IMG/VR virus record: IMGVR_UViG_3300042399_002267
Reading direction: 5' to 3' (one strand)
Length of the DNA: 64,000 nucleotides
From: a virus
Positions 1,351 to 22,939 of this stretch are shown here, in pieces. Position numbers and translations under genes: made by a program. The notes below the pieces were generated by a model that did not search any database, was not told where the DNA came from, and was given only the letters and a program-made list of their open reading frames with translations. How positions within the stretch are numbered: the stretch's first letter is position 1; each line of letters begins with the position of its first letter.

Positions 1351-2328
1351 ATGATTACAAGCAAAACTCCATATAGAATAAGTTTTTTTGGTGGCGGAAG
1401 TGACTTGGAATCTTATTATGAAAAAAATACTGGATATGTAATTTCTACATCAATAGACAAGTATATATATCTTAGTATTAATAAAAAATACGAAAAATCA
1501 ATACGTGTAAATTATTCAAAAACTGAAAATGTTAATAATGTAAGTGAAATTAAACACGATATTGTTAGAGAAGTATTGAAATATTTTGAGTTAACAAGTT
1601 ATTTGGATATTACTTGTGTGGGAGAACTTCCATCCAACGGTACTGGACTTGGTTCGTCAAGTGCATTTACTGTTGGTTTGATCAGTGCATTAAATAAATA
1701 TTTAAGATTGAAACTATCTACTCATGAAATTGCTAATTTAGCATGCCATGTTGAAATAGAAATATTGGGAAAATGCATAGGTAAGCAAGATCAATATGCT
1801 TCAGCATTTGGTGGGTTTAATGAAATAATATTTGAAAAAGATGGAAATGTTCTTGTCAATCCATTGAATGTTTCAAAAGACTTAATTGCCCATTTACAAA
1901 ACAATCTTTTGCTTCTTGACACAAAAAATCCAAGAAATGCAGAAGATATTTTAGTTAAACAATCTGATAACATTAAAAAAAGTTCAAATGTATCTGACAA
2001 TCTTTCGAAAATGATTGATTTAGCAAAAAATTTCAAAGATATGTTGCAGAAAAATGATATAGACAATGTTGGTTATTTATTGCATGAATCATGGATCTTG
2101 AAAAAGAATCTTAGTGATTCTATAAGTAGTAATCATATTGATCAGATGTATGACTTTTGTATGAGCCTTGGAGCAGAAGGTGGAAAATTATTAGGAGCTG
2201 GTGGCGGTGGATTTCTATTAATTTATGCTAAGCCTGATATAAAAAAGAAAATTAAAAATTTCTTTTCAGATTACAATCCATCAGATATCAAAATAAATAC
2301 AAATGGCACTATTGCTAAATATATATAG
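1351..2328 (+). CDS. hddA: GHMP-family sugar kinase, D-glycero-D-manno-heptose 7-phosphate kinase-like
   Basis: KTPYRISFFGGGSD, ELPSNGTGLGSSSAF, GKQDQYA and GKLLGAGGGGF. ATG 1351 is preferred over the track's TTG at 1336. Confidence 0.8.
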   Translation: MITSKTPYRISFFGGGSDLESYYEKNTGYVISTSIDKYIYLSINKKYEKSIRVNYSKTENVNNVSEIKHDIVREVLKYFELTSYLDITCVGELPSNGTGLGSSSAFTVGLISALNKYLRLKLSTHEIANLACHVEIEILGKCIGKQDQYASAFGGFNEIIFEKDGNVLVNPLNVSKDLIAHLQNNLLLLDTKNPRNAEDILVKQSDNIKKSSNVSDNLSKMIDLAKNFKDMLQKNDIDNVGYLLHESWILKKNLSDSISSNHIDQMYDFCMSLGAEGGKLLGAGGGGFLLIYAKPDIKKKIKNFFSDYNPSDIKINTNGTIAKYI

Positions 2329-2333
2329 TTAAA

Positions 2334-2365
2334 AAAATAAGGGGAGAAAAATCTCCCCTTATTTT
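2334..2365. terminator. Bidirectional intrinsic terminator between convergent genes
   Basis: Perfect inverted repeat AAAATAAGGGGAGA-aaaa-TCTCCCCTTATTTT between the hddA-like and capsid stop codons. Confidence 0.85.
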
Positions 2366-2380
2366 ATATAGTGTCAGTAA

Positions 2381-3235
2381 TTAGCTGACGGTGATTCTGG
2401 AAACTGCGTAATCGTTGATTAATGCAAATCCGAGTTCTTCGTAAACAACCCATCCAAGTCTGAGTCTCTTTGGATCGTCAGCTGGGAGGACAGTGATGTC
2501 TTGGCGAACTGGGAGAGCACCAACGAATTGTGCAGGTGCGAGAACGTATACAGAGTTCTTAGGAACCATTGTGGAAACGTGGATGTCTGCGGAATAAATA
2601 TGTCCGTAGAGACCAGTCATAAGAACGTCTCTTTGAGTTGCCTCATCGAAGAATTCCTTACCCCAGTTTCTGATATCCTTGTATCTTTGTGGGTGAAGAA
2701 CAACCTTAGCACCAATGAGTTCGTGCTCTTCGATGAGAGTCAACGCAAGGTTGATGTTCTCTGGTTGAAGAGTACCGGAAACAGTGATAGCTTGGTCAGT
2801 TGGAACACCAGCATTGACAACCTTGAAGACTTCTGTATCTTCTTGTCTTTGGAGGGAATCCTTTGCGCGAACCTGTGCTCTATCGACAATGTAAAATCTT
2901 CTTTGGCGAATTTCGTTAAGTCTGATTTGTGGATGTGCAGCAAGTTCAATTGTTGGGACAAGGAGCTCTTCAGCTTCAACTTCAGCAGAAGGAACAGCGC
3001 CTCTCTTAGGAATAACATAGGACTTTACAGCTACATCTCTCTCATATCTTGCAAGAGCGCCTTGTGGGAGCTCATCAACCATGAGAAGTTTTCTACCGAT
3101 AGCTTGGTACATAAGGGAAGTCTTGATTGGCTCAACCATAGCTTGAGCTAATGCTGTGCGTCCCTCAGGAGTTTCGAGAGCCATCGCAATGATAGCTTCT
3201 CTCTGCTCGTTTGTATTTCTTTTGATCATTGACAT
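2381..3235 (-). CDS. Major capsid protein (HK97 fold, Bxz1/cluster C-like)
   Basis: LAQAMVEPIK..L.YQAIGRKLLMVDELPQG, ELLVPTIELAAHPQI, QEDTEVF, G.LPVRQDITV and LGWVVYEELGFALIN parallel Bxz1-type MCPs as I recall them. Last gene of the head operon, with a strong SD and biased codon use. Confidence 0.85.
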   Translation of the reverse strand: MSMIKRNTNEQREAIIAMALETPEGRTALAQAMVEPIKTSLMYQAIGRKLLMVDELPQGALARYERDVAVKSYVIPKRGAVPSAEVEAEELLVPTIELAAHPQIRLNEIRQRRFYIVDRAQVRAKDSLQRQEDTEVFKVVNAGVPTDQAITVSGTLQPENINLALTLIEEHELIGAKVVLHPQRYKDIRNWGKEFFDEATQRDVLMTGLYGHIYSADIHVSTMVPKNSVYVLAPAQFVGALPVRQDITVLPADDPKRLRLGWVVYEELGFALINDYAVSRITVS

Positions 3236-3264
3236 TTTATTTTTCTCCTAATATCTTCCTAAAA

Positions 3265-3942
3265 TTAGAGTGCACTTAACTGGGTGAAGTAAAGAAGACC
3301 AGTTGCGGAATCGTAACTGTCAACTCTACCTACAACGAAGCCGTGTGAGGAACCAGTACCGGAAAGAAGACCAGTCATACCAATCTTGGTAACTTTTCCA
3401 GATGAACCTACAGCAGCAGCAACAGTTAAGAGATCACCGATTGCAGGTGTCCATGCTGAACCAGCTGTATCATCAGCAGTAGCAGAAGTTGTTGCAAAAC
3501 CAATAAATCTGTCAGTAATGAACTGACCACCTGGGGTGTTGAATGCAGCAACGCCTCTTCTAGGACCTTCAAAACCAGTTGAACCAGCTGTTGGGTTAGT
3601 AACAGTATTGACGTTCTCAGCTAAGAAGTCAGCAATTGCTCTCTTTGCAACGACATAGAATGCGTTGTTGTTAGCAACAAAGTTGCCAGATGAGTCGGTG
3701 TAAGATGCACCAACTGGATCAGCCAAGATCATGGTGTTACCAGATCTAGCTGTATCGTCAGCTGAGAAACCAACGAATCTACCTAATTGAAGGGAGTTGT
3801 TGTTGAAGTCAGATCTGTTTCTATAAGCTGGAACTACCTTGCCGTTAGCTTCAATCATTAAAGCGTCACCAGCAAAGATAACAGCACCAGCGAGTGTGTC
3901 ATAGTTTGCAACAATTGCAGAATTTAATGCACGAATAGCCAT
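3265..3942 (-). CDS. Putative capsid decoration/cement protein
   Basis: Ala/Gly/Thr-rich, beta-strand-like 225 aa directly upstream of the MCP; SD AGGAG. Confidence 0.55.
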   Translation of the reverse strand: MAIRALNSAIVANYDTLAGAVIFAGDALMIEANGKVVPAYRNRSDFNNNSLQLGRFVGFSADDTARSGNTMILADPVGASYTDSSGNFVANNNAFYVVAKRAIADFLAENVNTVTNPTAGSTGFEGPRRGVAAFNTPGGQFITDRFIGFATTSATADDTAGSAWTPAIGDLLTVAAAVGSSGKVTKIGMTGLLSGTGSSHGFVVGRVDSYDSATGLLYFTQLSAL

Positions 3943-3972
3943 TTTTTATTCTCCTAAATTTGTGTTTGAGGA

Positions 3973-5652
3973 CTAATCCTCGATTTGTGGCATTGACCAA
4001 GTGCCTCTAAGGGCAGATTGGATGTCGAGAGCTGCATTATTGACATTGCTGCCACTAAATGCAGGGGTTGTAGAAATACCAAGTGTAGATGCTGTTCTGG
4101 TATTACTCATTCTCTCAGCAGCTGCAGCAGCAACTCTTTCAGAAGATGCTTGTGCAGATTTGAGTAGAAGTTTGGTTTGTCTGATCATAGCGTCAGCCTT
4201 AAGGTTGTCGTTTAACATTTGATCAGCATATGCATCAACTTCAGATGTTTCAATGATTCCAGCTAATGCTAGTTTACTTGAACATGAATAAGCTGCTTTA
4301 ATTCTGGCTTTTTCAAGATCAGAAGAAGATGTCATCAACTTGACCTGATCACCAGGAGTTTGCTTGACTGTGACAGTTGCAGCATCCTTATCAGAATAGG
4401 TGCCCTTATTCATCATTTCAGAATAGTTGTCTTTTTCCATCTTTGCGCAGTTTGAACATTCAGTTTTTTCATCATGCATTTCAGCATCTGTCATTGATGT
4501 TTCATATCCACATGTTGTACACTTGACTGCATGTCTTTGTGCTTGAGCAACAGTGGTCTTATGTGGCATTGATGGCATTTGAGTAGGAACCTCAAAATAC
4601 TTTGCATCAAGTCCTTCTGATGGATTCTCTAATGAATCCCAATCCACTGTATACTCTAAAGAGCCATCGCCTGAACCTTCGAACTTGCTAGGCTTAGTGA
4701 TATCTGGGAATTGTAAAGAATCAGGGATGTTTGTAGGAACTTTTTGGTCAGCAAATGAAGGGTTCTGTTCCTTGAGAGAATTCCCATCACTTCCTTCTAA
4801 TGTCATAGAAGGATATTCTACTTCACCTGGCATGTTTACCATGTCTTCGTTGTACTTGAATCCTGCTGACGCTGGATATTGCTCTTCCTCTGAAGCAATC
4901 TTCTTAAGAATAGCCTCTCTCTCAGCACGTCTAGCAGCTAATGCTTGTTTAGTCATTTTGTTCACTCCATTACTTGTGTGCATTTTAGGCTCGGAATCTA
5001 ATTCCATTTCATCTTCATCAATGTCCATGTCGTCTTCTGAATCCATATCTGAATCCATATCGTCTGAATCAGTATCCATGTCAGAATCATCTTCCATGTC
5101 CTCATCATCAAGATCAACGTCCATGTCCATATCATCTTCTCCGCCTAGAAGATTGTCGAGCGCTTTCTGCACTGCTTTCTGTGCAACGTCAACCATATCA
5201 GCGGGAACTTCTATTTCAAACGTAGCCATCTCTTCAACATCGTCTACTTCGTCTTCGTCATCATTTAAATCGTCTTCTAAATCATCTTCATCATCTTCGA
5301 TGTCTTCGTCCATGTCTTCCATGTCTTCGTCATCTTCAAATTGATGCATTTCAATTTCTTCATCTTCTGTTTCATCGTTTGCGAAGTCTGCAGTCTCTTC
5401 TGCCCCACCGTCAAGATTGATCATTTTATTGACATGCATTTCGTCCATGCCTGCTTCTCTGGCAACTGACGGTAAATATTTAGCTCTTATTGCATTAGCG
5501 ACAATGGCAGCTTCATCTTTGTTTAAAGATGCAGTTTTTACCATGTCATTGACACATGAGTTAAAATCTTCCTTGTCAGTAACTTGAAGTTCAGCAAGAC
5601 GAAGCGCAGCTAATCTTTGTTGGTGATCGGCATTCGTCATATTTTCTTTCAT
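3973..5652 (-). CDS. Putative scaffolding/head core protein, highly acidic
   Basis: Lies between protease and MCP; long D/E/M low-complexity tract, helical C-terminus (..LDIQSALRGTWS), CxxC..CxxC motif. Confidence 0.55.
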   Translation of the reverse strand: MKENMTNADHQQRLAALRLAELQVTDKEDFNSCVNDMVKTASLNKDEAAIVANAIRAKYLPSVAREAGMDEMHVNKMINLDGGAEETADFANDETEDEEIEMHQFEDDEDMEDMDEDIEDDEDDLEDDLNDDEDEVDDVEEMATFEIEVPADMVDVAQKAVQKALDNLLGGEDDMDMDVDLDDEDMEDDSDMDTDSDDMDSDMDSEDDMDIDEDEMELDSEPKMHTSNGVNKMTKQALAARRAEREAILKKIASEEEQYPASAGFKYNEDMVNMPGEVEYPSMTLEGSDGNSLKEQNPSFADQKVPTNIPDSLQFPDITKPSKFEGSGDGSLEYTVDWDSLENPSEGLDAKYFEVPTQMPSMPHKTTVAQAQRHAVKCTTCGYETSMTDAEMHDEKTECSNCAKMEKDNYSEMMNKGTYSDKDAATVTVKQTPGDQVKLMTSSSDLEKARIKAAYSCSSKLALAGIIETSEVDAYADQMLNDNLKADAMIRQTKLLLKSAQASSERVAAAAAERMSNTRTASTLGISTTPAFSGSNVNNAALDIQSALRGTWSMPQIED

Positions 5653-5713
5653 TTTCTGCTGCTTCCCTTAATTAAAATACAAAATCTTGTATTACAAGAA
5701 ACTGTTATTTTTC

Positions 5714-5739
5714 TTCTATTTTTAAATAGTTTTTACCTG
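5714..5739 (-). promoter_or_regulatory. Putative late promoter CAGGT-N16-TAGAA
   Basis: Minus strand gCAGGTaaaaactatttaaaaaTAGAAg; the same motif and spacing occur upstream of the protease gene. Confidence 0.6.
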
Positions 5740-5741
5740 CA

Positions 5742-5773
5742 AAATAGAGGAAGAATGGCTTCTTCCTCTATTT
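5742..5773 (-). terminator. Intrinsic terminator after the protease gene
   Basis: 13-bp perfect stem AAATAGAGGAAGA/TCTTCCTCTATTT. Confidence 0.75.
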
Positions 5774-5781
5774 GTACATAT

Positions 5782-8700
5782 TTAGTCAATCCAAGTGATA
5801 TTTACATCAAGTTTTGATGGATTCTTCTTGTTTTGGCTTACAACTGTTTTTGAGTAGTTTCCACAATCATAACAGAATGTATTATTTTTAACCTTATGTG
5901 CTTCTCTATTTCCACACTTAGGGCAAATCATACCAATTGGTAATCTTTTTTCGGTTGTTTTATCAAAATCTGGCATTGCTGTTCTAAGATAAACATCGGA
6001 ATCAACTGTAGCAGCCAATCTGTACATAGCTTTGTATGATGCCATTGGCGCCATAGCACCAGGAGCTCCCATAGGTGGAGCAGGAGGAACTTCAGTTGGT
6101 GCAGTTGCAGCACCTAATCCCATGTCTTCTCCCATGCCTAAATCAGGTAACTCTTCTGCGCCTTTTCCATTGCTTCCCATTGAGACAAGTTCAATCGATT
6201 GAAGAACCTTGTATGTGGTACCACATGCTTGGCAATCTGCATTTGATTCAGAAATGTTTACATCATCAGAGCCACAAACTGGACAAACTGAACCCCAAGG
6301 CTTGATTGCACCAGGCTCAGAGATTTGATCATTAGGATCAGATGCATTCATCTCATCCCCACCAGTCATAGCACTGATACCTAAATCTCCACCTGGAACA
6401 GCAGATGCATCTGGTGCAGGTTGACCAAGATTAGGATCTACAGGACCTGCAGGAGGAGCTGCCGGTGTCATGCCCGGAACTTGTGCATATTTGAGAAGAA
6501 TTTGATTTCTCTTAGCTTCTCTTGATGCTTTGGCAGATGCTGTCATAACAACAACTGGTTCTTCAGTAATCTCGCCAACTGACTCATGTCCAGCATCATG
6601 TTCGGACATCATGGAATCAGAACCATTTGAAACATCAAATGATTTTGTTGATCTTGTTGAAACAGTAGCAGTTACGTCACCATTAGCAGTGACAATCAAA
6701 TCTGTGAATGAGAAAGTATTTGGATCTACTGTAAAACCATGCTCTTGAAGTACAGATATAGCCTTTTGCTTGAATGTTTCTTCAAATGCATCATCAGAAG
6801 GATTAACGCCCTCTAAATCATCTTTTGTGCATACAAATCTCAAGCATTCAGATTTATCTTGAGTTACTTGAATACCAGCAGTTCTTTCTGAGGATCTTTT
6901 GATTTGAATTGCCTTAGTTAGTAATTTCTCAGCCAAATCATAATCTTCAACAAGTCTCTTAGCAGCTACAACAATTGATTTTGTAGGAATGTCAAAGTTA
7001 GTTGAATAATCAGCGAGCCAACCAATAACATTGTTGTCAATATTGTCAGCAGATGCAGTTCTTACTCCCCAGAAATCTCTTCTTTCTCTGGATCTAAGTC
7101 TAGCATCGGTGGAAGATGCTGTTTTAGCTCTGGTGATAGCAGCAATCATTTGTTTTTCTGGCATTGATTGCATACTGTCGATAACTTCACTAGGTGTAGT
7201 TCCAGTTTCTTCACTTGCCATAGCGCCTGCAGAAATGACAGACTTTATTGCTTCTTTGGATGGTAACTTTTCATCTTTATCAACAGCTGATTGAAGAGCA
7301 GATTTTAATTCTTCTGTTTTAGAAGAAGGAGCTTCAACATCTAAGCCTTCAGAAGGTACGCTAACGTCCATCATTAATGAACCAATAATGTTCATAATGC
7401 CTTCTTTGGTAATTGCGCTATCTTCTGCTACTACTGCGATTGCATCCGCCAAGTCTTTAGCAGTGATAGTTGATGTTACTGCATCACCAAGTTGCTTGAG
7501 AATAGCAGCAACTGAATTATCAGGTTCTACATCTTTGCTGAAGAAGTCAGCATTATCAGCTTCATCTGCTCTCATTTCACTTCCTGCAGCAGAGGTGCCA
7601 ATCATTTCAGGCAACATTGGTTCTTCTGCAAGCATTTGTGCAACTTTGATGATTTTGTCAGGAGTTTCCATTGCAGAAACAACAGATCTACCAAGTGCAT
7701 TAATTGTTGCAGACATAATTTCATGAGCAGATGCAGAACCTTCAGTTCTACTTTCAGAAAGTCTCTTTTCAATTACTTCTGTAGGAACGCCTTTAGCAAC
7801 TTCAGCAACTAATTCTGTAAGAGTTTTCATAACTTCAGAATCTTTTACTCTATGTGCATAAAGTCCAGCTTCACCTAGTAAAATTTCTTTTACATCTTCA
7901 GCGCCTTTACCAGTTTGTTTGGATTCAAGTAATTCTTCTCTTACTTTATTCATAACACCAGTATTTTTGCTTTTGACACCATCTTGAAGATTGTCGTAAG
8001 TTTCACCAGTTCTTACTTCTTCAAGTTGCTCTTGTCTTGATTCAAGTCTTTCTTTGACATCAAGCAATGCAGTTCTTACAAAACCAGAATATTGATTTAA
8101 TAATTCTGCAGCAACTTTAGTACCTTGACCATTCTCCATCATGTTAAGTTGAGATTCAGTCAAAATAGGCTCCCAGCTATTTCTCTTGCCGTTGGTAAAT
8201 CCTGTGATGGAACCATCTGTAGAGAGAACAACTTTATTTCCTGCAGCATCTTCGACTTTAAAATCGATAGTTACAGCAGCAGCAAGCTTTTTTCTTTGTT
8301 CTGATGCGATTTTTGCAAAATGATCCATTTCGTTTCTGCCCTCCGCCCCATTATTTTTTGGCGTGTTATTTTTGATATTTTTGTTTCGTTCATTAGCTAC
8401 TCTAATGACTGATTCAATACTGCTTTGAACATCTCTTGAATATCCAATAGAATTCTTAAGTTCTAAAAGACTTTGTGAAAATGACAAAACTTTATTTGTT
8501 TTCTCAGGTGTTTTATACCCATTACTTGCAAACACTTCTCTAGAACCATCATTTGATGCCCATACAAAATGAAGATCAGATGATGCTAGTGCTACACCGC
8601 CACCTACAGGAGATGTTTCTTGCGGTAAAGATAAATCCATTACTCTTCCAACATTTCCCATTGGAGAATAATTAGCAAGACCTACAGGCGCTGCAGCTTG

Positions 8701-9966
8701 TGGAGCTTGTTGAACTGCTTGTTGAGTTTGACCTTGATTTAATGGTTGTGGTCTTTGACCAGAACCAACATCAACACCATCATCAATCATGTCTTGCATA
8801 GTTGCCTGTAAATCAGACATAGCTTTAGTTACTTTTTGAACATGCGTGAGGTCAATATTGTCTTTTCTTGCAAACATGTTCATCACAGCAACTTCTAAGA
8901 AGTTTAATGCAAGGTTGATCATATCCAAGATGTTTAAACCACTTCTTGGATCAATACCCAAAGCATTCAAAATTGCAGCCACTGTAGAGTTTTGACTTGC
9001 TCCTGGACCTGCTAAAAGTTGACCACCAACCAAGTTGCCTGGCGATTGTGCCAATTTCAATGCAGTGTTTGTCGCAGACATTGCCGATCTTAAGAAATTG
9101 TCGTATTCAGATCTTAATTCTGGATTTACTGGAGCACCTTGATGAGCTAAAACAATACTTGATTTGATTTGTTCAGCTTTCTTTTCAAGATTTTCTGCTT
9201 GATTTAAAACATCATCAACATCATAAATTTCTTGAATTTCACAAGCTTCAAAAGCACCATCGCCTACACAAGAAAGCTCTATAAACTTTAAATTGTAGTT
9301 TTCTTCGTAAACTTTTTTGCCTGTAGTTGGATGGGTTTTACCCTTGTGTTTTTTTAAGCATTCACAATAATCTTTGACATCGTATGCTTTGTTGCCACAT
9401 TTTGAGCATGTTCCGTAATCAACAGAACATCCCATAGACACATCGTGAATGATTCCAGTTCTGATATTTCTAGCAATATCAGGATATGCTTCTTCATCTA
9501 CGAAGAAGGTACAATATACACAATTTTCTTTATCATCCCACTCTGCATAAACTACCATCCCTTTGGCTTGTTCAATGTCATCGTTTTTGTGATTTGTATA
9601 AATTGGAACCCCTTCAAATGTCTTATATGCAGGTAACTTTTTTCCTTGAATATCTCTTTCTTTTAAAAGTTCTTCTTTAGAAAAATAATCTCCATTTGCA
9701 TTGCAAATGTCTGCATCTATAGCTCTAGCTCTGACCCAAAGAAGTTTAGCGCCCTGACGAGCTTTCATTTCTTTGACAATATCAAAGTCTTTATATTTTT
9801 CTAAAACATCTTTGGGATCTGCATATAAAGATTGCAAACCAATTTTTGCAGCCTCTCTCATTTGTGATGAGGCTGTCCTAAGCATATGCTCTCTGGCTAT
9901 ATTTCTATCTTGTTCATTTAAGAAACTATCAATTGTGATAGCTCCGCCTTTTGCAATCCTATACAT
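5782..9966 (-). CDS. Prohead (capsid maturation) protease with a very long C-terminal extension and Zn ribbons
   Basis: The N-terminal domain has N.NGDYF..EEL, IYTNH, HDVSMGC and FIELSCV (HK97-type His/Ser protease signature). The C-terminus has CPVC/CQAC and CPKC/CYDC. Confidence 0.75.
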   Translation of the reverse strand: MYRIAKGGAITIDSFLNEQDRNIAREHMLRTASSQMREAAKIGLQSLYADPKDVLEKYKDFDIVKEMKARQGAKLLWVRARAIDADICNANGDYFSKEELLKERDIQGKKLPAYKTFEGVPIYTNHKNDDIEQAKGMVVYAEWDDKENCVYCTFFVDEEAYPDIARNIRTGIIHDVSMGCSVDYGTCSKCGNKAYDVKDYCECLKKHKGKTHPTTGKKVYEENYNLKFIELSCVGDGAFEACEIQEIYDVDDVLNQAENLEKKAEQIKSSIVLAHQGAPVNPELRSEYDNFLRSAMSATNTALKLAQSPGNLVGGQLLAGPGASQNSTVAAILNALGIDPRSGLNILDMINLALNFLEVAVMNMFARKDNIDLTHVQKVTKAMSDLQATMQDMIDDGVDVGSGQRPQPLNQGQTQQAVQQAPQAAAPVGLANYSPMGNVGRVMDLSLPQETSPVGGGVALASSDLHFVWASNDGSREVFASNGYKTPEKTNKVLSFSQSLLELKNSIGYSRDVQSSIESVIRVANERNKNIKNNTPKNNGAEGRNEMDHFAKIASEQRKKLAAAVTIDFKVEDAAGNKVVLSTDGSITGFTNGKRNSWEPILTESQLNMMENGQGTKVAAELLNQYSGFVRTALLDVKERLESRQEQLEEVRTGETYDNLQDGVKSKNTGVMNKVREELLESKQTGKGAEDVKEILLGEAGLYAHRVKDSEVMKTLTELVAEVAKGVPTEVIEKRLSESRTEGSASAHEIMSATINALGRSVVSAMETPDKIIKVAQMLAEEPMLPEMIGTSAAGSEMRADEADNADFFSKDVEPDNSVAAILKQLGDAVTSTITAKDLADAIAVVAEDSAITKEGIMNIIGSLMMDVSVPSEGLDVEAPSSKTEELKSALQSAVDKDEKLPSKEAIKSVISAGAMASEETGTTPSEVIDSMQSMPEKQMIAAITRAKTASSTDARLRSRERRDFWGVRTASADNIDNNVIGWLADYSTNFDIPTKSIVVAAKRLVEDYDLAEKLLTKAIQIKRSSERTAGIQVTQDKSECLRFVCTKDDLEGVNPSDDAFEETFKQKAISVLQEHGFTVDPNTFSFTDLIVTANGDVTATVSTRSTKSFDVSNGSDSMMSEHDAGHESVGEITEEPVVVMTASAKASREAKRNQILLKYAQVPGMTPAAPPAGPVDPNLGQPAPDASAVPGGDLGISAMTGGDEMNASDPNDQISEPGAIKPWGSVCPVCGSDDVNISESNADCQACGTTYKVLQSIELVSMGSNGKGAEELPDLGMGEDMGLGAATAPTEVPPAPPMGAPGAMAPMASYKAMYRLAATVDSDVYLRTAMPDFDKTTEKRLPIGMICPKCGNREAHKVKNNTFCYDCGNYSKTVVSQNKKNPSKLDVNITWID

Positions 9967-10090: not shown

Positions 10091-12391
10091 TTATAAAACA
10101 ATTTGCCCATTAGGTTGAAAATTTGATCTTTTCTTTATAGCATTTACAATAACATTTATACAATCTTGTGGATGATCATTTAATTCTTTATCTGTAAATC
10201 TGACAATAATCCAACCATGAGATGCCAAGTCGGTGTCTCTTCTTTTATCTCTTGCTATTTTTTCTGGGTTATTGTGCCAAATTTCACCATCTGCTTCAAC
10301 ACCTATTCTCAAAGCTGGGATTGCAGCATCAAGTTGAAAATCTTGTGTGTTTCCAGCTGAATATTGTGCATACAATGGATATGGCATATTGATTGACATC
10401 AACATTCCATAAAGTTTTTTCTCTAATGATGTAAACAACTGTGGATTGTTTGTCTGCATTTTCTTTTTAGCAGCAGTTCTAATGTTTTCATCTTCATCAA
10501 CAGAAAATCTATTAAGTTCAATTTTAGCTTCATGATTTAACGGGCTAGAAGTGTCTCCGCCAAAGAAAGGCGTATACATATTTCCATACAACCCATCATA
10601 TTCATCAGGTAGTCTTCCCAAGTAGCCTCTGCCATTTACAGGAACTAAAGACTTGATAAACCCTTCATGCGCAGCAGATTTATATCTTTTGCTAGCTAAA
10701 CGTTTAGTTGTTCCATCAAAATGAATTTGCATTTTTTCATCAACAATTTCATTAATCATCGAAGATGCTAATCTATAGTTTTCATCTCTTGAATTAGCAA
10801 GTGGTGGCGCTAATCCTGGTGCGCCCATTCCTGACATATCAGGAGCTTGCTGTGCTCCAAAACCTTGACCTGAAACTGGACCTGATTGAATGTTCATGCT
10901 GAATTCAGGAACACCATAATTTGGATCCTTCATGAATGTTGCACCTTGTTCAAATCTCAATCTTTCAATTTCTTGATCGACATCTAAACCGAATGCTTCA
11001 ATTAATGAAACATTTGAAACTACTCCATTTTGGTTGGCTGTTACAAGTGTTTGAAGTTTATTAGTTTCATCTCTTAATTCCAAAGAATTGAATTTGATTT
11101 TAGGATAAATGATTTCGTCTTGTCCTCTTTCGCCTTCAACTACAAATCCATTCCACTGAGAAACTGGCTTAAATATTTTTTGTTCTATCCAGTTAGCAAC
11201 TTCATGTCTCCAAGTTTCAATTCTTTGCTCCATTGCAAGAAGACCAACTTGACCAGCTGAGTATGCAGGACCTTCTCCAGTTAATAACACTTTACTAAGC
11301 ATCATTCCATCTAGAAGTTCATTTTCGATTAATTCAAATTGATTGGAGATATCATAAATTTTTCCACTAGCTCCATACCATTCTAAATCAAAGTTATGGT
11401 GAGTAACAAGTGTAAGGTTAGGGTCATTTGCCAAAGATGACAATTCATCTTGAACGCTATCAATATCTTCTTGAGATGCAGGACGAGTATCAGAGCCTAT
11501 TTTGACAACCTTAACAGGAATGATTAATCTTTCAGCAATTATATATTGAGCCTGTCTAAGTTTATCTTTGTAAGTTAATGTTTGAAACAATGGTCTTACA
11601 ATAGATGTGCCATAATCTTCCCAAGGATTAGAGCCATATTTAAAATGATGAATTGATATTGGGTTTAATTTGATTGGTTCACCCTTTTGTATCAATCTCT
11701 TTACACCATCAGGGATATTTTCATATACTTCTTTTGGGCTACGTTCTGTGACAATTCTTACTTCTTCTGCAGATGGTCTGTAAGAATATGATCCATGTTG
11801 ATCAATCATCCCTGGAGATTTTAAAACACTGTCAGGATTTAGGATAGAACATGATTTCCAAGTGGCTCCGTCATGTTGACATTCTTCGCCTTTTTCATTG
11901 TCCCAGTTTGATCCAAAACAATGAGGGCAATCAATTGACATTAATACGAATGCATCACCCAATAAATAATAGACTTTGGAAATCTCCGGGAGCCATTTTT
12001 GGAAATTTAAAACTTCAATTAATTTTTCAAAATAGTCTTTTACATAAGTGGAAGAACACTCAAGTTTCCATCCTGAAAATGGATAAGTAGCATAAAAATT
12101 TATTCCAGCAGCAACTTTAGGTTCATTATTTTTCCACCAGTTTGCCCAAAGATATACTTCACGTCGAGCATTTGGAATCTGAAAAGATGAAGGAGTTAAG
12201 AACGGTGAATAAAAGTTAGGAGAAGTGGTTACTGAATTTACAGATGCTTGCCTTACATTAGGACCTGGACCTTGAGAAACTCTGCTAGTGGCATGATTTC
12301 TTTTTTCAGTAACATCACTTATTGTTGTTTCACCAATTACTGATTTTGCTGATGATTTGATAGCAGCTGCCAATGAAAGTCTATTTGCCAT
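10091..12391 (-). CDS. Portal protein with a C-terminal DUF559/Vsr-like PD-(D/E)xK nuclease domain
   Basis: Portal-like core (YYLLGDAFV, ILNPD, HFKYGSNPWEDYGTSIVRP, KLRQAQ..IAER...PVKVVKIG, GEGPAYS). The C-terminus has QLDAAIPALRIGVEADGEIWH..DKRRD..L...GW.IVRFT. Confidence 0.8.
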   Translation of the reverse strand: MANRLSLAAAIKSSAKSVIGETTISDVTEKRNHATSRVSQGPGPNVRQASVNSVTTSPNFYSPFLTPSSFQIPNARREVYLWANWWKNNEPKVAAGINFYATYPFSGWKLECSSTYVKDYFEKLIEVLNFQKWLPEISKVYYLLGDAFVLMSIDCPHCFGSNWDNEKGEECQHDGATWKSCSILNPDSVLKSPGMIDQHGSYSYRPSAEEVRIVTERSPKEVYENIPDGVKRLIQKGEPIKLNPISIHHFKYGSNPWEDYGTSIVRPLFQTLTYKDKLRQAQYIIAERLIIPVKVVKIGSDTRPASQEDIDSVQDELSSLANDPNLTLVTHHNFDLEWYGASGKIYDISNQFELIENELLDGMMLSKVLLTGEGPAYSAGQVGLLAMEQRIETWRHEVANWIEQKIFKPVSQWNGFVVEGERGQDEIIYPKIKFNSLELRDETNKLQTLVTANQNGVVSNVSLIEAFGLDVDQEIERLRFEQGATFMKDPNYGVPEFSMNIQSGPVSGQGFGAQQAPDMSGMGAPGLAPPLANSRDENYRLASSMINEIVDEKMQIHFDGTTKRLASKRYKSAAHEGFIKSLVPVNGRGYLGRLPDEYDGLYGNMYTPFFGGDTSSPLNHEAKIELNRFSVDEDENIRTAAKKKMQTNNPQLFTSLEKKLYGMLMSINMPYPLYAQYSAGNTQDFQLDAAIPALRIGVEADGEIWHNNPEKIARDKRRDTDLASHGWIIVRFTDKELNDHPQDCINVIVNAIKKRSNFQPNGQIVL

Positions 12392-12427: not shown

Positions 12428-12801
12428 TTGTCATAAAAAACTGAAGGATCGCCTTTACCAGAATTGTACTGTATGGTTCCTTCACCATTTTTCATACTCA
12501 TCCCGCCTTTGCCCTTTTCAACTTGCAACATGTTTATTGAGTCTTCTTCGTAATGTCTTCCATTTTCAAGTTGACTTTGCAAAGTTTGAAATCTAGGGTC
12601 ATTAGCCTCTATATCAGATTGTGGAACATCTTGAACAATTTTTTCGAATAATTGAGATTGATTTGTTTTGGAATCAATATAAAAGTCATCTAAAGATCTT
12701 CCTTGGTCTAAAAGAAACTTAATCATTTCTCCTGACATTTCAGGTTTTTGAGGATTTATTACTCCCCCGCCAATTCCATCTTTAGCAATTCTGTACCACA
12801 T
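12400..12801 (-). CDS. Hypothetical head-associated protein (MWYRIAK leader)
   Basis: 133-aa ORF in the head module; its N-terminus is nearly identical to that of the protease (MYRIAKGG). Confidence 0.6.
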   Translation of the reverse strand: MWYRIAKDGIGGGVINPQKPEMSGEMIKFLLDQGRSLDDFYIDSKTNQSQLFEKIVQDVPQSDIEANDPRFQTLQSQLENGRHYEEDSINMLQVEKGKGGMSMKNGEGTIQYNSGKGDPSVFYDNLPSNKTLV

Positions 12802-20815: not shown

Positions 20816-22939
20816 TTATCTAAACCTTCCACCTAAATTCATCAATCTTGCATTAGGAAGTCTTATAATTATTTTTGATGTTAAACATTCATAAGATACA
20901 GCAGCTACAGCATCGCAAATGTCATCTTTGTATCCTGACAAAGACTCGATGTAATATCTTTTGCCTTTCCATTTCTTTTGTAAAAATTGAAATTGGATTT
21001 TAGCTTCTTGCACTTCATTAAGTGGTTGTCTTTCACCACGCATATCAAGATAACTACCACCTGAAATATCATACATGTCAATTCTTTCTTCTCTAATTAA
21101 TTGACTTAATTCAGTGTAAATATCTTCTTTGTATTGTTTATTAAAATGTTTTTCAACAATATTTATTCCAGCAGTTTTCAATCTTATAATTGAAGATTGT
21201 GAATTCCATTGATCAACACTAACTTGTTTAAATCTAAATCTTTTATGAAGATCAATGACATAATCTTCAACTTCTCTAGTGTCAATTGGTTGATTTTTGG
21301 ACATTGGATTCCAAAAGTGAATGTGATCAATAACTACTCGCTTAAGTGGTCTATTATCAGGACCTACAGTTCCATACATAGGCTCTGTATGAGCAACACA
21401 CAATGCATAATAATCTGATGTTCTAGCAGGATCTAAATGACAATAATATTCAAACATATTGTCAGCATATTCTTTTCTTTTGACCATACTCATGCTACTG
21501 AACATAGAATTAATCAAATCAGCCATAAACATAGGATCTTGAGAAGATGCACCAAATTCAGCCCCATATTGCATTTGAAATTCTGATGGATTTTTCTTTT
21601 TTTCGTTATCTAAAAATTCTTTCCCAATATTCGGATTTGCTAACCATGTTGGCAATCTCATTATCAAAGTCGTAGGATCTTCAACTCTGTTTTCATGCAA
21701 GTCGTGCAATAACCCAATAGGTCCTTTGGGGTTTGAAAGCATCATCATCTTTCCGTCTTTTCCAAAGGTTGCAAGAGATGGCTTCAAATCATCATATAAT
21801 GCGTAATCTAATCCTGAATCGGGATTATCACCTGCCATAGCAGCAATTTCGTCCATGATTATGCACCAGCAAGTTAGACCAACAAGACCTGATGCACTTG
21901 AAGAACCACATTTTAAAGTTAAAGAACCAGAAAATGGATTTAACCCTTGAGCAGTACGGCGTTCATTTTCCTTAATATCATGGTCTGTAAGGAATCTCAT
22001 TTCAAGTTCAGTGTCTTTGCCAATAAATGGATTGAAATATGGCGAGGCTAGTACTGTTTGTTTGATTTTTGAGAAGATAGCATTCTTTGCTTGTTCTTCA
22101 TTTTTAGCAACATTCAATAAAACAATTTGATCAAATTCCATTAAACCATATCTGGCTTGTGGATGACCCATAGAAATCAATCTGTACAGTTCATAAAGTG
22201 CAATAGCTGAGACTAAGAATGATTTTCCACTACGTCTTCCAAGTACCAGTACAAGTTCTTGAAATTTGTATCTATTTGTACATTTCTCGTATATTTGATG
22301 TCTTAGTTTGGAATCTATTTCATCAGAAAACAAAAGATCTTTTTCTGATTGAAAACCATCAATAACAGGTCTATCTGATAATTTATCTACAAGTCTGATT
22401 GCATCAAAGTTTGTAGCTTCTTCTTTTGCATCTTCATATCTTTTTATTCTGACATCATCATCTAAATTAACGCATTCAAGACATGGAGAGTTATCAACTG
22501 TAAAAAGTGGTTTTACTATTTTACCAAGTTTCTTTTTTCTTAAAGTATCTTCCTCATTGTCCTTGATATGTTTCCAAACGCACCCTTCGCATCCATTTCT
22601 TTCTTCTAAAGGAACATCTTGAATTTCTAAATTTTCATTTCCTTCTTGCCCCATATAAAAACACTTGAGAATCAATCTTTGCCAAGGATGTGGCTTCAGA
22701 TTACAAAAATAAGGGTGTTCTATAAATGTTATGATGTCTACGATTTGATCAGGGTTAAATCTTGTCTTCTCTGGTTTTTTTGGAGGGGATATATCAGTTC
22801 TGGCACTTGGCAAAATGATATCGTCAAACTCAGATGCATAGCCAGTGTCTTTGAAGAATTGAGAAACTTCATTAGCTTGCTGCATAAGTTGACTTTTGAG
22901 GTCATGTTGCGCTAATTTCTGCGGATTTGGTTTTCTCAT
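20816..22939 (-). CDS. terL: Terminase large subunit
   Basis: Walker A LGRRSGKS, Walker B IIMDE, coupling motif LSNP, RNase-H-like HLDPA, DQWNS and KDDICDA. Confidence 0.9.
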   Translation of the reverse strand: MRKPNPQKLAQHDLKSQLMQQANEVSQFFKDTGYASEFDDIILPSARTDISPPKKPEKTRFNPDQIVDIITFIEHPYFCNLKPHPWQRLILKCFYMGQEGNENLEIQDVPLEERNGCEGCVWKHIKDNEEDTLRKKKLGKIVKPLFTVDNSPCLECVNLDDDVRIKRYEDAKEEATNFDAIRLVDKLSDRPVIDGFQSEKDLLFSDEIDSKLRHQIYEKCTNRYKFQELVLVLGRRSGKSFLVSAIALYELYRLISMGHPQARYGLMEFDQIVLLNVAKNEEQAKNAIFSKIKQTVLASPYFNPFIGKDTELEMRFLTDHDIKENERRTAQGLNPFSGSLTLKCGSSSASGLVGLTCWCIIMDEIAAMAGDNPDSGLDYALYDDLKPSLATFGKDGKMMMLSNPKGPIGLLHDLHENRVEDPTTLIMRLPTWLANPNIGKEFLDNEKKKNPSEFQMQYGAEFGASSQDPMFMADLINSMFSSMSMVKRKEYADNMFEYYCHLDPARTSDYYALCVAHTEPMYGTVGPDNRPLKRVVIDHIHFWNPMSKNQPIDTREVEDYVIDLHKRFRFKQVSVDQWNSQSSIIRLKTAGINIVEKHFNKQYKEDIYTELSQLIREERIDMYDISGGSYLDMRGERQPLNEVQEAKIQFQFLQKKWKGKRYYIESLSGYKDDICDAVAAVSYECLTSKIIIRLPNARLMNLGGRFR

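Follow-up and report, generated by a model that had tools for sequence, protein, structure and literature searches.

A DUF559/Vsr-like nuclease domain fused to the portal protein across a clade of giant phages

Introduction

Why would the portal protein of a phage end in a nuclease? The question is raised by one gene of IMGVR_UViG_3300042399_002267, an 87-kb viral record with a CheckV completeness of 23%, of which we analyzed one stretch of 64,000 nt (from here on, the window). The gene lies at 10091..12391 on the minus strand, stop codon included, and encodes a protein of 766 amino acids (aa) that we call the portal-nuclease. Few parts of tailed viruses are as conserved and as well studied as the portal, which is seen as a passive ring that also serves as a sensor. 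To our knowledge, no model phage shows catalytic activity in the capsid, or delivered from it, by way of a nuclease fused to the portal.

A preliminary description of this DNA had proposed that the portal is followed by a Gly/Pro/Met linker, three protease cleavage sites and a DUF559/Vsr-like endonuclease that may be clipped off. The span at issue, 10094-10780, corresponds to residues 538-766, the last 229 residues of the protein. All of the strings that the description quoted (the Gly/Pro/Met tract, YRLAS, KRLAS, IRTAA, FQLDA, VEADGEIWH, DKRRD and GWIIVRFT) are present in the sequence.

A portal and a nuclease in one reading frame

The gene is a single uninterrupted open reading frame (ORF). 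Its portal part is matched by Pfam Portal_Mu (PF06074) at residues 226-465 with 35.8 bits (cut-off 23.9) and by several portal families of PHROG, of which the best is phrog_16240 (E 3.9e-30). We modeled the full-length protein with AlphaFold2 (AF2) from an alignment with 34 relatives, which gave a mean predicted local distance difference test score (pLDDT) of 67.6. Compared with solved portals (lambda, T4, G20c, HK97 and others), this model had 125 matches at E<=0.001. The gene also has a portal's place in a head-morphogenesis module, with a protease-scaffold gene next to it and the major head protein and terminase in the same block. All the sequence and fold criteria that we applied place the protein in the portal family.

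The protein can be divided into four parts, all on the minus strand like every other feature given below. The portal core covers residues 58-486 (10934..12220), with its C-terminal helices at 443-486, as judged from similarity to gp14 of phage G and from the AF2 model. Within the core there is a cluster, C155-x2-C158 ... C171-x-H173 (11873..11929), that is invariant in the 34 relatives and may be a zinc-binding insertion in the portal body. A flexible linker rich in Gly, Pro and Met follows at residues 487-534 (10790..10933). The Gly/Pro/Met tract itself lies at about 505-535, the AF2 model is disordered at 482-530 (pLDDT <50), and both the length and the sequence of the linker differ between relatives. 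The middle region, residues 535-650 (10442..10789), has a long helix (535-563), a conserved patch PV-x-GRG...LP in which V585, G587, R588 and P595 are invariant, and two helices that pack on the nuclease in the AF2 model. Pfam and NCBIfam scans of this region gave nothing usable. The last part is the nuclease domain, residues 651-757 (10121..10441), which AF2 models as a compact alpha/beta domain at 655-756.

Nuclease fold. Pfam places MTES_1575 (PF18741) at residues 682-752 with 39.6 bits (cut-off 38.2) and DUF559 (PF04480) at 687-752 with 25.8 bits (cut-off 20.6), so the proposed in-frame fusion holds: there is one ORF, and the Pfam matches are over their cut-offs. The preliminary description had also put the nuclease at the same number of copies as the portal, which is correct because the two are one polypeptide. 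It had named a PD-(D/E)xK fold as well, and modeling bore this out. A model of residues 531-766 (pLDDT 74.6) has the alpha/beta PD-(D/E)xK fold, and in VIA comparisons it matched the DUF559 protein 3HRL (Z 11.5, root-mean-square deviation 1.9 over 93/94 residues), the catalytic domain of I-Bth0305I (3R3P, Z 10.9) and E. coli Vsr (Z 8.7 for 1CW0 and 7.8 for 1VSR). Foldseek gave the same top three (3HRL, 3R3P and 1CW0), with a TM-score on the target of 0.78-0.81 for the first two. When a profile of the family was compared with the PDB, it found 3HRL at E 1.6e-5 and 3R3P at E 1.5e-4, and in the profile alignment the pattern D / E-A-D-G / H / D-x-x-R matches 3HRL, which is NGO0050, residue for residue. 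By these matches, the C-terminal domain is a member of DUF559/MTES_1575. The known proteins of these families share the fold and the pattern with the portal domain, but they are small stand-alone proteins or carry the domain at the C-terminus of helicase-type proteins, whereas here it is at the C-terminus of a portal.

Active site. The catalytic block, D688 ... E699-A-D701-G-x-x-W-H706 ... D715-x-x-R718-D719, lies at 10235..10330 and was delimited from invariance and from the alignment with 3HRL. D688, E699, D701, H706, D715, R718, D719, G726, W727, R731 and F732 are invariant in 34 full-length sequences, the catalytic positions are also invariant in 21 C-terminal sequences, and nearly all of the more distant fused portals keep the catalytic set. 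The residues of the block agree with the composite EDxHD set that has been described for Vsr and I-Bth0305I (PMC3239194). The domain therefore appears intact and looks functional, which makes it a candidate for nuclease activity.

We also considered that the domain might be a domesticated DNA-binding module that cuts rarely or never; it might anchor the DNA end that is packaged first, or act below the inner end of the portal to sense DNA or hold it there. There are Vsr-like folds that have come to bind nucleic acid without cleaving DNA, and RAP domains (mitoribosomal proteins, FASTKD4) were among our structural hits. Such a module would pose no toxicity problem within the capsid, and one distant representative (P0184) has E-V-Q-G instead of E-x-D-G. 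However, binding alone is not expected to preserve the catalytic set, and the full set (D, E-x-D, H, D, R-D) is invariant in the 34 full-length and 21 C-terminal sequences. We regard pure DNA binding as improbable.

Relation to Vsr. We rejected the candidate that the domain is an ortholog of the Vsr mismatch endonuclease. TIGR00632 scores 24.2 bits against a cut-off of 97.85, and E. coli Vsr is alike in fold but is not an ortholog. The public label "very-short-patch-repair endonuclease" that these portals carry is thus a misnomer, and it conceals the portal gene in these genomes.

Distribution, selection and age of the fusion

In a search of 5.8 billion proteins we found at least 120 relatives (120 among the matches listed) at 48-97% identity, nearly all of them about 760-810 aa long and with both Portal_Mu and MTES_1575. 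A few relatives are shorter, and these sit on very short contigs. One protein cluster (P0002) is 97% identical across all 766 residues. IMG/VR gave 161 relatives, and the domain terminates each of the 58 complete ORFs that we fetched from it. One of these 58 is the portal of a 478-kb phage, at 49% identity. Reaching further out with cluster representatives, we found 324 clusters that match at E<1e-30. DUF559/MTES_1575 was present in 23 of 31 sampled representatives, down to about 35% identity, and in seven sampled portals at 32% identity or less the domain was missing, the C-terminus being a Gly-rich tail or some other sequence.

These counts dispose of one rival explanation, an assembly error or frameshift, which the preliminary description had itself named as a way for the fusion to be spurious. 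The same continuous frame recurs in dozens of independently assembled contigs from many samples, and related portals share the domain in 58 of 58 complete IMG/VR relatives and on hundreds of independent contigs. We found nothing in favor of an artefact and consider it refuted; the recurrence across samples excludes it.

Selection was compared between the parts of the protein as mean pairwise identity and as the median ratio of nonsynonymous to synonymous substitution rates (dN/dS) over 252 pairs. The nuclease domain (651-757) has an identity of 0.63 and a dN/dS of 0.030, close beside the portal core (58-486) at 0.72 and 0.023. The linker (487-534) has 0.43 and 0.119, and the middle region (535-650) 0.37 and 0.103. 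Divergence of the core and of the nuclease is correlated (r 0.89), and none of 2000 Mantel permutations reached this r. It is strongly supported by these comparisons that purifying selection on the nuclease is as strong as on the portal core. The fusion appears to have happened once, long ago, with nuclease and core evolving jointly since then. With all this in hand, we are confident that this is a genuine, functional portal-nuclease fusion that extends across the clade.

A separate form of the module was not found. Among hundreds of relatives there is no naturally separate module, and all shorter hits that were traced or listed are on short contigs. Two short proteins that we traced (P0236 and P0266) begin at the first bases of their contigs and are fragments, not genes. 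We also found no free-standing close relatives of the nuclease domain in a word-based search, which would miss distant ones.

The other alternative in the preliminary description was a stranded homing endonuclease. We considered it as a stranded or still selfish EDxHD homing-type enzyme fused in frame by chance. There are reasons to take this seriously. The closest solved sequence relatives include I-Bth0305I, a phage intron homing endonuclease (Bacillus phage 0305phi8-36; PDB 3R3P; PMC3239194), which has a similar Vsr-like catalytic domain and composite catalytic set, and the portal genes of the clade are a hot spot for mobile elements, with many homologs that carry one to five inteins. However, I-Bth0305I is encoded in a group I intron, has N-terminal DNA-binding regions of the NUMOD type and belongs to a mobile family, whereas the portal domain is fixed in its clade. 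It is in every complete relative, is single-copy (DUF559 occurs once in a 100%-complete 478-kb relative and once in an 89%-complete 358-kb relative), co-diverges with the core and has a dN/dS of 0.03. Scanning residues 531-664 with Pfam at E values up to 10, we found no NUMOD and only a chance-level RecX_HTH3, which leaves room for remote similarity. Intein or intron boundaries are absent, and the endonucleases of the inteins in related portals are of the LAGLIDADG type and not DUF559. We consider the homing explanation largely refuted and very improbable.

Inteins. Portal homologs of 1100-3000 aa are common, and the query is matched in them in three to six separate stretches. All seven of the long portal homologs that we sampled match intein-type families (LAGLIDADG_3 in seven, Intein_splicing or Hint in some). 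It seems that inteins abound in the portal genes of the clade, up to about five in one gene, and that their break points recur near residues 84-101 and 342. The portal of the window has no intein.

Closest annotated portal. Among annotated phages, the closest portal is gp14 of phage G (Bacillus/Lysinibacillus; Donellivirus gee), at 28% identity over residues 57-486 only. It belongs to the Portal_Mu family too, and phage G likewise has a giant myovirus-type genome. It differs in that gp14 is 648 aa long and has no DUF559/MTES_1575, and there is no DUF559 in the whole phage G genome.

Candidate cleavage sites and the neighboring protease

The gene directly downstream of the portal, in 41 of 41 loci with enough flank, is the protease-scaffold gene. 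In the window it lies at 5782..9966 and encodes 1394 aa, with a prohead protease in the N-terminal ~250 aa (PHROG head maturation protease, E 9e-20) fused to a scaffold-like protein. A PDB sequence search with the protease domain gave no match. H126 and S177 are invariant, and so is A306-Q307, directly behind the protease domain. We presume that this protein is the processing enzyme. Its serine protease contains a Cys-rich insertion, and its very long scaffold-like region ends in two CxxC...CxxC zinc ribbons. Further along the head module is a 559-aa protein (3973..5652) that is rich in the motif described next and has neither a Pfam nor a PHROG match.

We counted the motif [KR][TLIVFY]A[SQAGT] against shuffles of each protein. 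There were 11 copies in the protease-scaffold where 1.5 were expected, 5 against 0.33 in the 559-aa protein and 4 against 0.44 in the portal, or 31 against 5.1 in the whole head module; the rest of the window had 18 against 8.2. The motif is enriched likewise in 17 orthologs of the protease-scaffold and the 559-aa protein, where motif columns are kept in up to 17/17 orthologs for the former and two columns in 15-16/17 for the latter. In scans of each position, Ala was the only residue enriched at P1 and K/R the only ones at P3, with T/V/I/L at P2 and S/A/Q at P1', and these preferences also hold in four divergent orthologs that played no part in defining the motif. In the form [KR]-[TVIL]-A-[SAQ], the motif is 5-10 times enriched and positionally conserved in the protease-scaffold and the next gene, and another copy lies about 80 residues before the C-terminus of the protease-scaffold. 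Its enrichment and conservation mark it as a genuine short linear motif in the scaffold proteins, and the most natural reading of [KR]-phi-A-[SAQ] is that it marks a recognition site of the protease.

There is a known system with a similar layout. The herpesvirus assemblin-scaffold protein (PMC4498786) has an N-terminal serine protease in frame with a scaffold, and its cleavage sites are behind the protease and near the C-terminus. The R and M sites of assemblin are YLQA-T and VQA-S, with a consensus of X-X-A followed by S or T and the cut behind the alanine (PMC4498786). The candidate sites here resemble these in having Ala at P1 and a small P1' residue. They differ in a basic P3 and a beta-branched or hydrophobic P2, and the enzyme is of the phage prohead type (by PHROG match only).

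Sites in the portal-nuclease. The preliminary description had counted three cleavage sites, and they fared differently. Site 1, Y539-R-L-A-S543 (10763..10777), lies at the end of the linker and is a candidate prohead-protease site; as Y-[RK]-phi-A-[SA] at 539-543 it is kept in 33/34 relatives, within a region that is only 37% identical. Site 2, K563-R-L-A-S567 (10691..10705), is a further candidate that is kept in 22/34 relatives and is deleted in a subclade at about 50% identity. Site 3, I637-R-T-A-A641 (10469..10483), is kept in 3/34 and is probably a chance match. The clipping claim therefore stands in part: the motif is enriched and conserved in the scaffold proteins and site 1 is nearly constant, while the second site is patchy, the third falls away, and distant portals keep only a part of the first, as described below. 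Cleavage at site 1 we would put somewhat short of an even chance. On the reported processing of the Mu portal (gpH) at its C-terminus, a literature search gave nothing that could be used here.

YR[IL]A copies. The 133-aa ORF upstream of the portal begins M-W-Y-R-I-A-K-D-G (12781-12795, minus strand), and the protease-scaffold begins M-Y-R-I-A-K-G-G (9949-9963, minus strand), which is near-identical, although the genes are otherwise unrelated. In the 478-kb relative the small ORF has M-W-Y-K-F-A-N, and the N-terminal copies are only loosely kept. Altogether there are four copies of YR[IL]A in three adjacent genes, two of them as an N-terminal M-(W)-Y-R-I-A-K. YR[IL]A was not established as a separate four-residue signal, and we merged it into the broader [KR]-phi-A motif.

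What the nuclease might do

Solved portals are dodecamers with their C-terminal end toward the capsid interior. About 12 nuclease modules would therefore be inside each prohead. The mechanism that we propose starts with a portal that acquired a DUF559/Vsr-type domain at its C-terminus long ago, behind a Gly/Pro/Met tether of about 50 residues. The portal would carry its dozen or so candidate nuclease modules into the prohead, where the neighboring prohead serine protease probably cuts behind the Ala of [KR]-[TVIL]-A-[SAQ]. A cut between A542 and S543 would set a module free in the head, about 224 aa (25 kDa) in size. This module would then be an internal head protein, would exit through the portal with the DNA and, in the cell just infected, would cut nucleic acid or nick it. 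We take this to be the best reading of the locus, with a probability of about 0.4.

The proposal agrees with a described class of effectors. For effectors joined to a portal or MuF domain, packaging and injection have been suggested ("polyvalent proteins", Iyer et al. 2017, PMC5512222; see also the MuF polymorphic toxins, PMC5576092), and these too have an enzymatic domain on a morphogenesis protein inside the head. Among them are PBECR RNases, 2H phosphoesterases, InPases and variable toxin domains, and immunity genes often accompany them (PMC5512222); we did not find terms for Vsr or REase in the text of that paper. Given this class, the earlier statement that portals normally have no nuclease needs a qualifier, as enzymatic fusions to portal and MuF domains have been described (PMC5512222). 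The portal-nuclease differs from the MuF toxins in that Pfam finds no MuF domain, the C-terminal domain is constant and not variable, and there is no evident immunity gene, the next gene being the protease-scaffold.

A number of points weigh against clipping and ejection. We infer cleavage, release, ejection and activity alike. Site 1 falls within the first residues of a predicted helix (535-563). We counted the motif in the same proteins from which it had been derived, so the enrichment is partly circular, a problem that the position scans and the divergent orthologs lessen and do not remove. Fused portals at 35-45% identity keep only N-Y-[KR] and not phi-A-[SA], site 1 reads YREAV in the 478-kb relative, and the N-Y-[KR] pattern also fits a structural or binding role. 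The covalent link may matter beyond delivery, because among hundreds of relatives there is no lineage with a separate module. Finally, if a free nuclease were packaged alongside the genome, some specificity or inhibition would be required.

Several of these points favor a close rival, in which the nuclease stays tethered and acts on the DNA of the phage itself at the portal vertex. Its task might be to trim or nick the end of the DNA once this is packaged, or to handle nicked, mismatched or branched DNA, as a covalent counterpart of T4 endonuclease VII (gp49) or of T4 gp4. T4 gp49 binds the portal gp20 and frees packaging motors that have stalled at branches in the DNA (PMC9958956, which cites Golz and Kemper 1999 and Dixit 2011), and gp4 is reported as a nuclease required for morphogenesis (reference 111 in PMC7824862). 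Both put a nuclease at the portal vertex for packaging or head completion, as the fusion would. A tethered role would also fit the lack of any natural split between portal and module, selection on the nuclease domain that is as strong as on the essential core, and the decay of the candidate cleavage motif in distant fused portals where the fusion itself persists.

However, gp49 and gp4 are separate proteins with other folds that act non-covalently on the outer side, whereas the domain here is covalently attached at the end that faces the capsid interior. The C-terminus of the portal is inside the capsid, and stalled branches and the terminase cut are outside. The genomes of the nearest portals without the domain, including the 498-kb phage G, have no DUF559 at all, so giant genomes do not in general depend on this function for their packaging. 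The terminase also seems to keep a nuclease domain of its own, which is a lead only (see the next section). We consider a tethered role on the phage's own DNA rather unlikely.

Coming back to a module that is clipped and ejected, the strongest form of that proposal would make the portals of the whole giant-phage clade delivery vehicles: twelve Vsr-type nucleases, freed by an assemblin-like protease, would be ejected ahead of or with the genome and would attack nucleic acid of the host or of a competitor. We regard this extension to the whole clade and to such targets as doubtful.

The head module and its genomic setting

The head module consists of the 133-aa ORF, the portal, the 1394-aa protease-scaffold, the 559-aa protein, the major head protein and the large terminase. 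The large terminase, 707 aa (20816..22939, minus strand; PHROG terminase large subunit, E 6e-28), is about 8 kb upstream of the portal gene. It matches terminase families only from residue ~215 on, and its N-terminal ~215 residues have no recognized family. In an Atlas feature search, the C-terminal 258 aa resemble Terminase_6C / TerL_nuclease clusters with a score of 0.96-0.97, which we use only as a lead; on this lead the terminase seems to keep its own RNase H-like nuclease domain. A PDB sequence search with the terminase gave no match.

The G+C content is 0.28 at positions 1-2000 of the window, rises to about 0.40 at 2001-8000, where the major-head, 559-aa and scaffold genes are, and is 0.31-0.35 over most of the remaining window. 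As to the class of the source genome, the genomes and contigs of relatives are 300-480 kb, and one of them is complete with terminal repeats. Since the relatives are on contigs of this size, we class the analyzed virus as a giant phage.

Implications

Our literature search, which was sparse for subscription journals, found no paper on a portal-DUF559/Vsr fusion. A fusion to an intact nuclease that is selected across the clade implies catalytic activity inside the capsid or delivered from it. If the nuclease does stay tethered, DNA would be processed from inside the portal, and this would change the picture of packaging and ejection for genomes of 350-480 kb. If it is instead clipped and ejected, it would add a nuclease to the few proteins that enter the host along with injected phage DNA, and giant phages could shut down hosts or rivals at entry. 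As an ejected weapon it would be a new class of injected phage weapon, together with a predicted cleavage code for an uncultivated virus family. That code, [KR]-[TVIL]-A-[SAQ], can be tested on the head proteins of this uncultivated lineage.

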